From Escherichia coli (GTDB lineage Bacteria; Pseudomonadota; Gammaproteobacteria; Enterobacterales; Enterobacteriaceae): 10,895 bases of DNA. This document shows positions 95 to 10,895 of the stretch, in pieces; the first letter of the stretch is position 1, and every line of letters starts with the position of its first letter. Position numbers and translations under genes: made by a program. The stretch lies in the NCBI RefSeq assembly GCF_003334315.1, contig NZ_QOWR01000087.1; one strand, written 5' to 3'. The notes beneath the pieces are model-generated. The model ran no database searches, was not told where the DNA came from, and was given only the letters and a program-made list of their open reading frames with translations.

Positions 95-877
95 CTACCC
101 ACTAACGCTAAACAACGCATACGTATTATTAAGCAACACTTCGGCAATCTCATCTTCTGGTTCCGGGCGCAACTCGCAAAGCACGTCAAACACCCGCACA
201 GCCTGTTCCGGTCGGTTAGGCTGCCCCTGAAAGCCGTTGAGCGGCATATCCGGCGCGTCGGTTTCCAGCAACAACGATGCCAGCGGTAATTTTGCGATGA
301 CATCGCGGGTTTTACTGGCGCGTGGATAGGTGATAGTACCGCCTACGCCGATTTTGTAGCCCAGCTGTACAAACCGCTCGGCCTGTTGCAGGCTGCCGGA
401 AAAACCGTGAACCACGCCAGTGCACGGTAAATTGTGACGTTTAAGATGCATCGCCAGTTTGTCGTGTGTACGCCGGGAATGAAGGATCACCGGCAGATCG
501 TAGCGTTTCGCCAGTTTCAGCTGTTCGTCGAGTAACCACTGCTGCCTCTCAAATTGCGGATCGTCGCCGAAGAGATCCAGACCGATCTCCCCCACCGCCA
601 CCACCTTCGCCGGACGCCTTTCCAGCGCCTGCTGTAGCTGATCAAGAGACACATCGCTATGTTTTTCCAACATCCCCGGATGCAACCCCAATGCGGCATA
701 CAGCGGTTGATATTTTTCCGCTAACGCCTGCACGCGGGCAAAATTTTCCGCCTCTGTCGCCGGAACAATGATCTTGCCTACGCCCGCTTGTGCCGCGCGT
801 TGCAGGCTGGCCTCTTCATCGCCACTAAACGGCGGGAAATCAAAATGGCAGTGGGTATCGATAAAACGGCAAATCAA
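95..877 (-). CDS. yjjV: TatD-family metal-dependent hydrolase (deoxyribonuclease-like) YjjV
   Basis: 260-aa ORF beginning MICRFIDTHCHFDF with the HxH metal-binding motif typical of TatD/amidohydrolase proteins. Start codon is TTG (rc of 875-877) and overlaps the yjjU stop as TTGA; the exact start is uncertain. Confidence 0.85.
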   Translation of the reverse strand: MICRFIDTHCHFDFPPFSGDEEASLQRAAQAGVGKIIVPATEAENFARVQALAEKYQPLYAALGLHPGMLEKHSDVSLDQLQQALERRPAKVVAVGEIGLDLFGDDPQFERQQWLLDEQLKLAKRYDLPVILHSRRTHDKLAMHLKRHNLPCTGVVHGFSGSLQQAERFVQLGYKIGVGGTITYPRASKTRDVIAKLPLASLLLETDAPDMPLNGFQGQPNRPEQAVRVFDVLCELRPEPEDEIAEVLLNNTYALFSVSG

Positions 878-3354: not shown

Positions 3355-4944
3355 TTAATGCTCGCGGGTCTGGTGGAACTGAACGTCCGGATAACGTTCC
3401 TGCGCCAGGCGCAGGTTGACCATGCTGGTAGCGATGTAAGCGAGGTTATCGCCGCCATCAAGCGCCAGTTGGCTTTCGTTCTTACGCTTGAACTCTTCGA
3501 ATTTCTTCGCGTCTGCACATTCTACCCAGCGGGCGGTGGCAACGTTGACTGATTCATATACTGCTTCAACGTTGTATTCGCTCTTCAGGCGCGATACCAC
3601 CACATCAAACTGCAGCACACCAACCGCACCAACGATCAGATCGTTGTTGGAGATTGGACGGAACACCTGCACCGCGCCCTCTTCGGAAAGCTGTACCAGC
3701 CCTTTGAGCAGCTGTTTTTGCTTCAGCGGATCTTTCAGGCGGATGCGACGGAACAGTTCTGGCGCGAAGTTCGGAATACCGGTGAACTTCATCATCTCAC
3801 CCTGGGTAAAGGTGTCGCCAATCTGAATGGTGCCGTGGTTGTGCAGGCCGAGGATATCGCCCGGATATGCTTCTTCAACGTGCGAACGGTCACCTGCCAT
3901 AAAGGTCAGCGCGTCGGAGATCACCACATCTTTCGCAGTGCGCACCTGGCGCAGCTTCATGCCTTTTTCATATTTACCGGATACCACGCGCATAAACGCC
4001 ACGCGGTCGCGGTGTTTCGGGTCCATGTTGGCCTGAATTTTAAATACGAAGCCGGTAAATTTGTCTTCGCTCGCCTCTACGGTACGGGTATCAGTCTGAC
4101 GCGGCATCGGCGCAGGAGCCCACTCCACCAGGCCATCCAGCATATGATCGACACCGAAGTTACCCAGCGCAGTACCGAAGAATACCGGAGTGATTTCGCC
4201 CGCAAGGAACAGCTCTTTGTCGAACTCATTAGACGCGCCTTTCACCAGTTCCAGTTCGTCACGCAGCTGCTGTGCCAGATCTTCACCGACCGCTGCATCG
4301 AGATCCGGGTTATTCAGCCCTTTAACAATGCGGACTTCCTGAATGGTGTGGCCTTTACCGCTCTGATAGAGATAGGTTTCGTCTTTATAAAGGTGGTAAA
4401 CGCCTTTAAACAGCTTGCCGCAGCCGATCGGCCAGGTGATCGGTGCGCAGCCGATTTTCAGCTCGTTCTCAACTTCATCGAGCAGTTCCATCGGGTCGCG
4501 GATATCACGGTCAAGTTTGTTCATAAAGGTGAGGATCGGCGTGTCGCGCAGACGGGTAACTTCCATCAGCTTGCGGGTACGATCTTCAACACCTTTTGCG
4601 GCGTCGATAACCATCAGACAGCAGTCCACCGCCGTCAGGGTACGATAGGTATCTTCCGAGAAGTCTTCGTGCCCCGGGGTGTCGAGCAGGTTAACCAGGC
4701 AATCGTGATACGGAAACTGCATCACAGATGTAGTAATGGAGATCCCACGCTGCTTTTCCATCTCCATCCAGTCCGACTTAGCGTGCTGGTTAGAGCCACG
4801 GCCTTTTACTGTACCGGCGGTCTGAATGGCCTGTCCGAACAGCAGCACCTTCTCGGTGATGGTAGTCTTACCGGCGTCCGGGTGAGAAATAATGGCAAAA
4901 GTGCGGCGCTTCGCCACCTCTTGCAAATAAGGAGACAACGTCAT
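3355..4944 (-). CDS. prfC: Peptide chain release factor 3 (RF3), translational GTPase
   Basis: 529-aa product [28 protein letters not shown] with the G1 P-loop, DTPGH G3 motif and NKLD G4 motif. ATG at 4942-4944 is preceded by a purine-rich AAGAAGAAAG stretch. The track's 538-aa ORF adds 9 codons upstream. Confidence 0.95.
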
Positions 4945-5034
4945 AATTCTTTCTTCTTGAGTAAGCGGCATCGCGCCGCGCTTGTTGAAAACGAAAAATT
5001 GCGGCTATTTTACCCATCAACGGGGGGGAGGCAA

Positions 5035-5712
5035 TCAGTGTTTACACAGGAGCTGCTCCAGTTCGTGCAACGAAGAAACGGTCCAGGTGGGCGCGATGCC
5101 TTCTGGTTGCTCGCGATTGTGCGCATTCAGCCAGCAGGTCGCAAGCCCGGCGTTGATGCCACCGAGAATATCGGACTCGGCAGTGTCGCCAACCATCAGC
5201 ACGCGTGAACGGTCAGGATTGCCCGCCTGTTCCAGCGCATAATCGAAAATTTTCTTATTCGGTTTGGCAACGCCAACTTCTTCGGAAATCACCAGCAAAT
5301 CGAAGTAATCACGCAGGCCCGTGCGTTCCAGACGCACCTGTTGCAAGGCACTAAAGCCGTTGGTGATGATGCCGATTTTGGCGTTGCCACGAATGGCGTT
5401 AAGCAGAGAAACCGCGCCCGGCAGCGGCGTGCAGATTTCCGCCATCGCATTAATAAAGGCTTCGTTGAGTTTACCCGGCTCGACGTTCAGCCGTTCGGCC
5501 CAGCTCTCGAAACGCCCGTGCTGAAGCTGTAATGAAGTGATCGCGCCGTTTTGATAATCCACCCACAGTGGCTTGTTAACGGCCTGATAGTCCTGAAAAT
5601 CTTCAGCGGTAAAGGTGACGCTGTAATCAAGAAACATCCGCTGCAGGCCGGTGAATGAGTCAAAGGTAAACAGCGTTTCATCGGCATCAAAGAAAATCCA
5701 GTCCCACTTCAT
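5035..5712 (-). CDS. yjjG: HAD-family pyrimidine 5'-nucleotidase YjjG
   Basis: 225-aa [18 protein letters not shown] with HAD motif I (DxDxT) and a C-terminal GDT..SD motif. ATG at 5710-5712 is preceded by AAGGTGGAATA. Confidence 0.93.
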
Positions 5713-5726
5713 TATTCCACCTTGTC

Positions 5727-6173
5727 TTACATACTGATTGGCAACGCCATGATGATGGCGTCTTCGCGACCGTCCGTGGTGGGGTAGTAATTGCGGCGAA
5801 TCGTCGCCTCGTTAAAGCCTAAACTTTCGTACAGGGCAATGGCGGCAGCATTTGAGGCACGGACTTCCAGCCATAGTGTCGCCACGCCGCGTTTTTCCAG
5901 TTCGTCGATCAGATGTTCCAGCAGCACCCTTCCCAATCCCTGACGCTGATAGTCAGGATCGACCGCAATATTGAACAATGTAGCTTCATCCAGCACCACT
6001 TGCGTAATCGCAAACGCCGCCATTTTGCCGTTTTGCGTTAACTGAAAGTTGAGATAACGCTCGCCCTGGTTGCTGGCAAAGGTTTTTTCACTCCACGGAA
6101 AGGCGTGGGCGCGTTGTTCAATGTGGTAAGCCGCCGGTAAATCAGTCGTTTCGAGGGAAGAAATCGTGTTCAT
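5727..6173 (-). CDS. rimI: Ribosomal protein S18 alanine N-acetyltransferase (GNAT family)
   Basis: 148-aa ORF with GNAT acetyl-CoA motif [10 protein letters not shown]. Its 5' end overlaps the 3' end of holD by 32 nt. Confidence 0.93.
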
Positions 6174-6555
6174 ATGTGCAAATTTGTTGCCATAACGCGG
6201 CGCGTGCCGTTGGGTTTGCCCGTAATTCGGTGAGCGCCGGTGATGCCACCTGAGCGCCTTCCAGTGATAGCGGTTCGTCAGTACCCAACCGCCAGCTGTT
6301 GCAGCGACTGCCTTGCGGCAGCATCGCGATTTTTTCTGGCGTCAGTTGCAGCACTTGATCGGGGCTGACGGTTAATGCGCGCAGAACATCGCTCACTAAA
6401 GGATCGGTCAGGGCGGGAAGATCGTTTGCCACCATCACCAGACGGACGTGTGCCGGGATCGCAATGGCAATCTCCCCCTGCAACGCGCCAGGGCGACGCA
6501 GCGACCACTGGGTAATGCCCAGTTGCTGTAACTGCCAGTCTCGTCGGGATGTCAT
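6142..6555 (-). CDS. holD: DNA polymerase III psi subunit
   Basis: 137-aa ORF MTSRRDWQLQQLGITQWSLRRPGA, matching HolD by sequence memory. ATG at 6553-6555; the 3' end overlaps the rimI start. Confidence 0.92.
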   Translation of the reverse strand: MTSRRDWQLQQLGITQWSLRRPGALQGEIAIAIPAHVRLVMVANDLPALTDPLVSDVLRALTVSPDQVLQLTPEKIAMLPQGSRCNSWRLGTDEPLSLEGAQVASPALTELRANPTARAALWQQICTYEHDFFPRND

Positions 6556-6598
6556 AGCGAATCGCTCCTGTTGTCAGGGGCGCAAATATAGCAAATTC

Positions 6599-6628
6599 GT
6601 CGATACCGCGCCAACATATGGCTATAAT
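6599..6628 (+). promoter_or_regulatory. Candidate sigma-70 promoter for rsmC in the holD/rsmC divergent region
   Basis: Perfect -10 hexamer TATAAT at 6623-6628, 30 bp upstream of the rsmC ATG; the -35 is weak (gtcgat-like). Inferred from sequence only. Confidence 0.35.
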
Positions 6629-6657
6629 CGCCGCCAGTATCAATTGAGGAGCATTCC

Positions 6658-7689
6658 ATGTCTGCATTTACCCCGGCAAGTGAAGTCTTGCTGCGTCACA
6701 GTGATGATTTCGAACAAAGCCGTATTCTGTTTGCCGGAGACTTACAGGATGACCTGCCCGCGCGTTTAGATACCGCGGCCAGCCGTGCTCATACCCAGCA
6801 ATTCCACCACTGGCAGGTATTAAGCCGCCAGATGGGGGATAACGCCCGTTTCAGTCTGGTCGCCACGGTGGATGACGTCGCAGATTGCGATACGCTGATT
6901 TACTACTGGCCGAAGAACAAACCGGAAGCCCAGTTCCAGTTGATGAATTTACTTTCTCTGCTGCCAGTGGGGACAGATATTTTTGTCGTTGGCGAGAACC
7001 GCAGCGGCGTGCGCAGCGCCGAGCAGATGCTGGCAGATTATGCGCCGTTGAATAAAGTCGACAGCGCTCGTCGCTGTGGCCTCTATTTTGGTCGTCTGGA
7101 AAAACAGCCGGTATTTGATGCCGATAAATTCTGGGGCGAATACAGCGTCGATGGCCTGACGGTCAAAACGCTGCCTGGCGTGTTTAGCCGCGACGGTCTG
7201 GATGTCGGTAGCCAGTTGCTGCTCTCGACGTTAACCCCGCACACGAAAGGTAAAGTGCTGGATGTCGGCTGTGGCGCGGGTGTGCTTTCAGTTGCCTTTG
7301 CGCGCCATTCGCCGAAAATTCGTCTCACCTTGTGCGATGTCTCTGCGCCAGCGGTAGAAGCCAGCCGCGCAACACTTGCGGCCAACGGTGTTGAAGGTGA
7401 AGTCTTTGCCAGCAACGTCTTTTCCGAGGTGAAAGGTCGTTTTGATATGATCATCTCCAACCCGCCGTTCCACGATGGGATGCAAACCAGCCTGGATGCG
7501 GCGCAAACGCTGATTCGCGGCGCGGTGCGTCATCTTAATAGCGGCGGCGAGCTGCGAATTGTAGCGAACGCCTTCCTGCCTTACCCGGACGTGCTGGATG
7601 AGACATTTGGCTTCCATGAAGTGATTGCGCAAACCGGGCGTTTCAAGGTGTATCGCGCCATTATGACCCGCCAGGCGAAGAAAGGTTAA
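6658..7689 (+). CDS. rsmC: 16S rRNA (guanine1207-N2)-methyltransferase RsmC
   Basis: 343-aa [15 protein letters not shown] with SAM-binding motif [12 protein letters not shown] and the NPPFH motif characteristic of N-directed methyltransferases. GAGGAG RBS lies 7 nt upstream of the ATG. Confidence 0.95.
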
Positions 7690-7997: not shown

Positions 7998-8084
7998 GCG
8001 AAGGTGGCGGAATTGGTAGACGCGCTAGCTTCAGGTGTTAGTGTCCTTACGGACGTGGGGGTTCAAGTCCCCCCCCTCGCACCA
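7998..8084 (+). tRNA. tRNA-Leu (anticodon CAG), leuQ/leuP/leuV family; single copy in this window
   Basis: 87-nt sequence gcgaaggtggcggaattggtagacgcgctagcttcaggtgttagtgtccttacggacgtgggggttcaagtcccccccctcgcacca. It has class II tRNA features: long variable arm, CAG anticodon in the loop cuUCAGgu, T-loop GGTTCAAGTCC and an encoded 3' CCA. Confidence 0.95.
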
Positions 8085-9325: not shown

Positions 9326-10003
9326 TTAATAGGGATGCAACACATTACTTGCTTCGCAATGCCGCATACATAACAGAATATCTGCGGCCTCCAACAACCC
9401 TGCATCAGAACTGACGCCCAGTTTCGACATCACATTAAATTTATGTGCACGGATCGTTTTGATATTGCGTTTAAGCTGCTCGGCAATTTGTGTCATTGAG
9501 TAGCCACGCGACATAAAGCGCAATATTTCTCTCTCCGTGGGGCTTAGCGTCCGGCTTTGGTTAATGTACCACTGATTGTTCAGTCGGTCGGTCGCCTGAC
9601 GTACACCATTTAATGACAAAAAGAGTTCCTGATGAAAAATCTCCAGCGTTGACGCTTTACTTAATACACCGTCCAGCGGTGATGGCGACAATGAACCAAT
9701 CAGCCGAGCTTCAATATCATCATCCGCAATAACTAAACGCCGGGTACGCGGAAACTTAATCGCCAGTTCAGTCAGGCAAGATAATCCCTCTCTGCGCTCA
9801 CTTCTCATGGCAGAAAAAGAAAAAATGACCGCCGCAAACGAGATCCGCGTCATGGCATCCTGAAATGACTCCTGACTGGTATAGGTATGGAGCTTATAAG
9901 GGTTACCCGCAAACTTTCTGAATAAACTCTCAATACCGATACTACTCATGACGCATTTTTCTATGAGTGCGACATTTCTCTTCTTAATTCGGCTGTGTTC
10001 CAT
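9326..10003 (-). CDS. bglJ: LuxR/FixJ-type transcriptional activator BglJ
   Basis: 225-aa [31 protein letters not shown] with a C-terminal LuxR-type HTH ([44 protein letters not shown]). The start overlaps the 3' end of yjjQ by 43 nt. Confidence 0.92.
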
Positions 10004-10442
10004 TCTGCGGCATCTCCATAAACAGAAGGCAAGTTAAGTTCTCTTGCACCCTGCGCGCTATTTATCCATGCATACATTTCAGCGTTGCTGTGAATTGCCA
10101 GTCGACGCATCGCACTGTTTTTTTGGGCGCTGATAGTTTTATTACTTTTCTTAAGCAATGAAGCTATCTGGTTGATGCCCCATCCTTTACCTAATAGCCG
10201 CAGTACCTTGCGCTCTGAAAGAGTGAGAATGACGGAGCGATAGCTAAAATCATGAGTTTCAGTCATTGCCGGAGAGGTCAGCATGGCGCTGATACGCTCT
10301 GCGTGCGTATTGCCGGAACGTACGGTCTTGACCAGATTCTCAATGGGTTCAACATCAGACAATAACGTCGCCGTAGGGCACATGAGCAGTTCTACTGCCT
10401 GGGAATACCAGGAGCGTGACACCATGAAAACCCAGTGAATTT
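9961..10442 (-). pseudogene. yjjQ: yjjQ (LuxR-type regulator), 3' portion only; 5' part separated by an IS1 insertion
   Basis: The reading frame ending at 9961 with a LuxR HTH ([42 protein letters not shown]) stays open upstream of the ATG at 10425, encoding ..[12 protein letters not shown].., up to the IS1 terminus at 10443. From memory full-length YjjQ is about 241 aa, so roughly 87 N-terminal codons are displaced beyond the IS. A 154-aa ORF (9961-10425) remains that could in principle be translated. Confidence 0.75.
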
Positions 10443-10895
10443 GGTAATGACTCCAACTTATTGATAGTGTTTTATGTTCAGATAATGCCCGATGACTTTG
10501 TCATGCAGCTCCACCGATTTTGAGAACGACAGCGACTTCCGTCCCAGCCGTGCCAGGTGCTGCCTCAGATTCAGGTTATGCCGCTCAATTCGCTGCGTAT
10601 ATCGCTTGCTGATTACGTGCAGCTTTCCCTTCAGGCGGGATTCATACAGCGGCCAGCCATCCGTCATCCATATCACCACGTCAAAGGGTGACAGCAGGCT
10701 CATAAGACGCCCCAGCGTCGCCATAGTGCGTTCACCGAATACGTGCGCAACAACCGTCTTCCGGAGACTGTCATACGCGTAAAACAGCCAGCGCTGGCGC
10801 GATTTAGCCCCGACGTATCCCCACTGTTCGTCCATTTCCGCGCAGACGATGACGTCACTGCCCGGCTGTATGCGCGAGGTTACCGACTGCGGCCT
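10443..10895 (-). mobile_element. IS1 insertion sequence, right end (partial; continues beyond the window)
   Basis: Terminal sequence ggtaatgactccaacttattgatagtg matches the IS1 right inverted repeat, followed by the insB reading frame. The element is 768 bp in full, so about 315 bp lies outside the window. The flanking 9 bp agtgaattt (10434-10442) is the candidate target-site duplication. Confidence 0.92.
10458..10895 (-). CDS. insB: IS1 transposase InsB reading frame (part of InsAB'), 5'-truncated by the window edge
   Basis: Translation ..[125 protein letters not shown] matches IS1 InsB. The frame is open to the window end. Confidence 0.9.

Follow-up and report, generated by a model that had tools for sequence, protein, structure and literature searches.

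The 3' end of holD and the 5' end of rimI share 32 nucleotides in different reading frames, and this overlap is genuine, not a chance overlap of open reading frames. It lies in a 10,895-nucleotide stretch of the Escherichia coli chromosome (contig NZ_QOWR01000087.1), hereafter the window, whose orientation is opposite to that of K-12. On balance we favour the reading that the junction belongs to an anciently fixed holD-rimI-yjjG operon, in which one mRNA carries the genes and RimI is made mostly by ribosomes that have just left holD. The overlap as such is not new: it has been in the literature since 2008 at the latest, and for a compact operon it is nothing unusual. The coordinates of the features are collected in Table 1.

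Table 1. Position, strand and main properties of the features discussed, in window numbering
Feature	Position	Strand	Properties
holD, DNA polymerase III subunit psi	6142..6555	-	137 aa; stop TGA 6144..6142
rimI, ribosomal protein S18-alanine N-acetyltransferase	5727..6173	-	148 aa; ATG 6173..6171
holD/rimI overlap	6142..6173	-	32 nt; last 10 codons and stop of holD (…EHDFFPRND-stop); first 10 2/3 codons of rimI
Near-invariant core ATGAACACGATTTCTTCCCTC	6153..6173	-	first 21 nt of overlap; mean column entropy 0.094 bit
rimI upstream region	6174..6193	-	within holD codons for LWQQICTY; 65% AU, no Shine-Dalgarno
Third-frame mini-ORF (MATNLHI-stop)	6170..6193	-	ATG at -20; TGA stop overlaps rimI ATG as ATGA
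holD Shine-Dalgarno, AGGAG	6565..6569	-	10-14 nt upstream of holD ATG; anti-SD duplex -6.6 kcal/mol
Candidate operon promoter upstream of holD	6585..6614	-	sigma-70-like: TTGGCG, 18-nt spacer, TATATT, TG extension; 9/12 consensus matches, pattern match only
yjjG, pyrimidine 5'-nucleotidase	5035..5712	-	14 nt past rimI stop; NCBIfam NF006976, 412.5 bits; own SD
yjjU stop/yjjV TTG start overlap	874..877	-	4 nt
bglJ start within yjjQ 3' end	9961..10003	-	43 nt
tRNA-Leu(CAG) gene	7998..8084	+	one copy
yjjQ, part still open	9961..10425		3' 154 codons
IS1 element	10443..10895		runs off window end
IS1 terminal inverted repeat GGTAATGACTCCAACTTATTGAT	10443..10465		exact
IS1 transposase fragment	10458..10835	-	NF033558, E 1.5e-36

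The initial annotation had described an overlap of this position and length, with the rimI ATG inside the 3' end of holD and in a different frame, and left the strand unstated. Both genes are on the minus strand, the exact coordinates and the length agree with the open reading frame list, and the reverse complements of positions 6171-6173 and 6142-6144 read ATG and TGA. The RefSeq/PGAP annotation of an identical strain gives the same coordinates for both genes, and the same ends are found in K-12 MG1655 (holD 4607803..4608216, rimI 4608185..4608631), where the overlap is again 32 nt. The frames differ because 32 mod 3 = 2; rimI is read in the +1 frame relative to holD, so that position 1 of a rimI codon is position 2 of a holD codon. 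A psi Tyr codon supplies the A and T of the rimI ATG as its second and third bases, and the next codon, for Glu, supplies the G (T-ATG-AA); past it, the eight-residue psi tail HDFFPRND extends for 29 nt in the -1 register, so that the overlap is 32 nt long. Several complete genomes match positions 5000-6700 of the window at 100% identity, and this region with the junction occurs in 5425 of 5426 complete E. coli genomes (junction at 95% identity or above). Both genes are annotated across it in the E. coli records listed.

Palleja et al. 2008 (BMC Genomics 9:335, PMC2478687) described the E. coli K-12 holD/rimI overlap as 32 bp, citing Carter et al. 1993 (J Bacteriol 175:5604) for this figure, and reported 56 bp in Salmonella and Yersinia together with conservation among Enterobacteria. 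Locus, length and frames are the same here and nothing essential differs; their 56 bp is reproduced by overlaps of 56 nt in Salmonella arizonae and Serratia. The present analysis contributes counts for some 80 species, shows the ATG to be anchored in psi Tyr/His-Glu codons of distant lineages, and reports variants of 8 nt and 29 nt as well as the lack of a Shine-Dalgarno (SD) sequence.

Both protein assignments hold over the full length of the sequences. HolD residues 1-137 match the clamp-loader psi chain PDB 8giy_F (E 1.5e-88, two mismatches), and the protein scores 320.7 bits against the curated psi equivalog NCBIfam NF005339 (cut-off 270) over 1-137 of 137, which makes it a full-length member; its nearest database homologues bear Pfam PF03603. 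RimI residues 1-148 match E. coli RimI (PDB 5isv_A, E 5.9e-95, one mismatch) as well as Salmonella RimI (2cnm_A). Scores of 262.7 bits against NCBIfam NF007025 (cut-off 173), with residues 2-146 on profile positions 1-145 of 145, and of 159.6 bits against TIGR01575 (cut-off 86.4) were obtained, and the GNAT acetyl-CoA motif (Q/R-x-x-G-x-G/A) is present as QRQGLG at residues 76-81. Because RimI is here nearly identical to the E. coli enzyme that has been characterised, it is assumed to acetylate the N-terminal alanine of ribosomal protein S18.

To follow the junction beyond E. coli, a GTDB set with one genome per species was scanned with a psi alignment, and the best 80 of 365 matches, all Enterobacteriaceae-like and with psi 69-99% identical, were inspected. 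Among these best 80 of 365 matches, the overlap is exactly 32 nt with the ATG at the homologous position in 75 of the 79 evaluable Enterobacteriaceae species genomes. Three more of the 79 (Salmonella enterica subsp. arizonae and two Pseudocitrobacter) have a 56-nt overlap, since the holD stop codon has been replaced and psi runs to 145 aa. The last, Enterobacter sp. RIT418, has a shifted start: ACG occupies the usual position, with an ATG one codon upstream and another two codons downstream, both still within holD. Both frames are thus coding and the geometry is kept in orthologous loci, as in a real, conserved co-directional out-of-frame overlap and not a misannotation. Within this set, the ATG and the 32-nt overlap are intact in a Citrobacter amalonaticus contig (L017), whose rimI appears to have a frameshift because the tblastn match begins out of frame. 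A contig labelled Chryseobacterium sp. 18061 (L033, CACSKA010000015.1) carries an Enterobacteriaceae-type holD (74% identity) and rimI (84%) with a 32-nt overlap, and is probably a contaminant or a mislabelled assembly.

Five more distant psi loci show the same arrangement. Their psi proteins are 58% (L082, Serratia), 46% (L086), 43% (L083), 39% (L087) and 35% (L088) identical to that of E. coli, with overlaps of 56, 29, 32, 32 and 8 nt, respectively; psi of L088 ends in …AAYE-stop. At all five, the rimI ATG is built from psi [Tyr/His]-[Glu/Asp] codons (xAT-GAx) and follows a conserved W-Q-Q-I/F motif. The position of the rimI start is thus kept between E. coli and relatives whose psi is as little as 35% identical, and the overlap length differs (8, 29, 32 or 56 nt) only because psi ends earlier or later. 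The RimI N-terminal pattern M-x-x-I-x-x-L-x-x-x-D is kept even where psi has ended, and is therefore evidence for the rimI start codon that is independent of the psi frame. Very distant psi relatives (P0168, P0201, P0219, P0229 and P0257; 24-35% identity) have no gene adjoining holD downstream, and the P0250 contig stops just after holD. These very distant genes come mostly from small or uncharacterised genomes, both of the named sources being small genomes of the endosymbiont type, and are uninformative about the holD-rimI junction.

Column entropies were calculated from an alignment of 79 sequences, namely 78 Enterobacteriaceae species loci (from the best 80 of 365 matches) and the window. 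The entropy of the 21-nt core is the lowest among 662 sliding 21-nt windows covering holD and the first 300 nt of rimI, while third codon positions in the non-overlapping parts of both genes average 1.24 bit. When all single substitutions in the E. coli overlap were enumerated, only C to A at +20 was synonymous in both frames, and this change occurs in two species. Dual coding accounts fully for the conservation of the overlap, and no further hidden element is needed. Upstream of the start (-20 to -1 of rimI), third-position entropy is 0.70 bit versus 1.24 bit elsewhere; most codons there are two-fold degenerate or TGG. Two candidate elements in this region were examined and rejected. A conserved RNA hairpin over the rimI start was ruled out, as the fold has a z-score of -0.18 and the would-be pairs (-20/-1 and -19/-2) vary independently. 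The third-frame mini-ORF that ends on the rimI ATG is not a conserved feature and is probably fortuitous, because its ATG is found in only 48 of the 79 aligned sequences.

The initiation region of rimI was then characterised. No SD sequence was found within 30 nt upstream of rimI, the best anti-SD duplex there reaching -1.5 kcal/mol, compared with -6.6 for holD, -7.0 for yjjG and -8.5 kcal/mol for rsmC. The opening energy of the rimI start (-20 to +14) is 8.6 kcal/mol, in the middle of the range of 12 starts in the window (3.6-13.8), and a 121-nt fold at the start is no more stable than shuffled sequence (z = -0.18). Of the two traits expected for the downstream gene of a coupled pair, a weak or a masked ribosome-binding site, rimI thus has the former through its lack of an SD; structural masking was not seen.

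Translational coupling, which the initial annotation had raised as a possibility, is plausible. A single mRNA from the promoter upstream of holD would bear both genes, and RimI would be translated at a low level because rimI is without an SD. Most rimI translation would probably come from ribosomes that had just translated holD. Such ribosomes would end at the holD UGA, 29 nt downstream of the rimI start, and then re-initiate at the nearby AUG, or would keep the site unfolded, and RimI output would thereby be tied to expression of the first gene of the operon. The unfolding form of coupling is unsupported, because no RNA structure that would need opening is seen at the rimI start. In the coat and lysis genes of RNA phages, coupling has been demonstrated at spacings of -38 and -50 nt, and coupling without an SD has been described as well (reviewed in PMC12548453); the stop-to-start spacing of -32 nt at holD-rimI is inside the range for which phage coupling was shown. 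According to the same review, coupling works best when the spacing is very short (-4 and -1 nt) and usually loses efficiency with distance. No experimental data on rimI translation, or on its dependence on holD translation, were found in the literature, where the gene name is confusable with the English word 'hold'; the ribosome-profiling, N-terminomics, kasugamycin and coupling literature makes no mention of rimI or holD as far as its text is searchable.

E. coli genes that lack an SD can initiate on their own. The main rival explanation accordingly accepts the overlap as real and dispenses with coupling: free 30S subunits would initiate rimI de novo on an AU-rich, moderately accessible site, and the overlap would be a neutral by-product of where psi happens to stop. 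We regard this as a distinct possibility, though not as the expected outcome. It agrees with the mid-range opening energy and AU content of the region, with the lack of significant local structure for translation to open, and with the finding that dual coding by itself explains the conservation of the overlap. It also agrees with a start that stays fixed while the overlap follows the psi tail, which suggests that the stop-to-start distance is not under tight selection. Such variation in overlap length (8-56 nt) argues against a critical role for the exact distance, and is compatible with coupling and with no coupling alike. What speaks against independent initiation is that rimI has no SD at all, that its start is within a translated region crossed by elongating holD ribosomes, and that it lies near the psi stop in every examined lineage retaining the gene pair; moreover, both SD-less coupling and coupling at -38 nt are documented (PMC12548453). 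The coupled reading is still the preferred one.

A stronger form of coupling can be put forward only tentatively, and we think it rather doubtful. It would make rimI a chromosomal case of long-range backward re-initiation, in which RimI comes almost only from ribosomes that finish psi and slide back 29 nt to the AUG within the psi Tyr-Glu codons, an arrangement kept across the gammaproteobacterial lineages examined at spacings from -8 to -56 nt. If this were true, output of the acetyltransferase would follow psi synthesis.

Co-transcription of holD and rimI, which the initial annotation had taken to be implied by the overlap, is probable and soundly inferred: rimI begins within holD mRNA, the promoter and terminator scans agree, and a published table gives 'holD,rimI,yjjG' as one operon (PMC4448311). 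On the minus strand, a scan with a crude, insensitive consensus found no promoter-like site inside holD and only the one upstream of it, and a consensus scan of 4900..6800 on this strand found no terminator-like site. The part of the claim that does not stand is its strictness. The overlap is not strict proof of sole co-transcription, because a weak internal promoter is possible. Internal promoters are common in E. coli operons, and rimI could also, or mainly, be transcribed from its own promoter inside holD, which would partly uncouple its expression at the level of transcription. No positive sign of such a promoter was found, and the insensitivity of the consensus scan leaves some room for one; against it, the sole sigma-70-like match on the minus strand lies upstream of holD, and the published table lists the three genes as one operon (PMC4448311), which makes an internal promoter unlikely in our view. 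That a replisome subunit is paired with a ribosomal-protein acetyltransferase, a point to which the initial annotation had drawn attention, is a matter of conserved gene order and is not evidence of shared function.

Far less probable is the reading of the overlap as an annotation artefact, with the true rimI start at a downstream codon outside holD. Gene callers do at times avoid overlaps: at locus L083 (1614..1647, AT-rich), the GNAT gene was called from a downstream ATG just past the holD stop, giving 136 aa, and the homologous upstream ATG restores a 32-nt overlap. This call is an example of caller bias against long overlaps. In E. coli, by comparison, the first in-frame ATG, GTG or TTG downstream of the rimI ATG is codon 51, with only the rare ATT at codons 4 and 18 before it. 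A start at codon 51 would cost about a third of RimI, a protein matched over its full length (1-148) by two crystallised RimI chains and covering with residues 2-146 the whole curated RimI profile, and a rimI start outside holD is therefore effectively excluded. A start further upstream is no better placed, as the rimI frame contains no ATG, GTG or TTG between the annotated ATG and the preceding stop. In addition, the homologous RimI N-terminus is retained in L088 beyond the psi stop, where RimI coding alone can constrain it. The downstream start, which had been named as the case that would overturn the initial annotation, was thus examined and can be set aside.

A programmed +1 frameshift in the overlap yielding a psi-RimI fusion protein has next to nothing to recommend it: rimI does lie in the +1 frame relative to holD and database proteins of 211-275 aa do contain psi and RimI segments, but these long proteins are full of out-of-frame stretches typical of assembly indel errors, the sequence shows no recognised slippery or stimulatory motif, and dual coding is enough to account for the conservation. 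The apparent natural fusions (P0136, P0137, P0150 and P0264) were accordingly rejected as frameshift-ridden translations of error-prone assemblies.

Two kinds of known junction can be compared with holD-rimI. The coat-lysis junctions of RNA phages fr and MS2 (-38 and -50 nt; PMC12548453) resemble it in that the downstream start precedes the upstream stop by tens of nucleotides, is read in a different frame and is itself served by a weak ribosome-binding site. They differ in that coupling was shown experimentally for the phage genes, whereas holD-rimI is known here from sequence, and in that MS2 coat-lysis relies on RNA structure, of which none is evident at holD-rimI. The common 4-nt and 1-nt overlaps (ATGA and TGATG; Huber et al. 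2019, PMC6728339) likewise join co-directional operon neighbours with a stop near a start. The holD-rimI overlap is eight times longer than the 4-nt type, and therefore comprises about ten dual-coding codons and would require a terminating ribosome to back up 29 nt. If coupling were shown, the junction would be a further case, and a cellular one, of long-range backward re-initiation.

Apart from its bearing on correct annotation the overlap has little import, although it is a textbook-type demonstration that long co-directional overlaps can be genuine. Gene callers can usefully be checked against it; one of them shifted the rimI start downstream in L083. It also matters for genetics at this locus: deleting or tagging holD at its 3' end takes away or changes the start of rimI, and changes in the first ten rimI codons alter the psi tail. 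A single T-to-C change at window position 6172 would destroy the rimI start codon without altering psi, since TAT and TAC both encode Tyr.

Several other features of the window were recorded. The overlap of the yjjU stop with the TTG start of yjjV is of the common short type. According to RefSeq and K-12 annotation, bglJ starts inside the 3' end of yjjQ, which would make this a longer co-directional overlap than that of holD and rimI. The longest open reading frame of prfC on the minus strand begins at ATG 4971 (538 aa), and RefSeq and K-12 begin the gene at 4944 (529 aa). The SD is not strong at either position (-3.0 and -1.6 kcal/mol, respectively). The window has one tRNA-Leu(CAG) gene versus three tandem copies in K-12 (leuQ, leuP and leuV) and in the closest RefSeq strain, and is shorter by 236 bp at this site, the combined length of two repeat units (115 and 121 bp). 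The difference could stem from a deletion by recombination between copies or from a collapse in the assembly. Finally, yjjQ is interrupted by an IS1 element with an exact terminal inverted repeat and a transposase fragment, and only the 3' 154 codons of yjjQ are still open.
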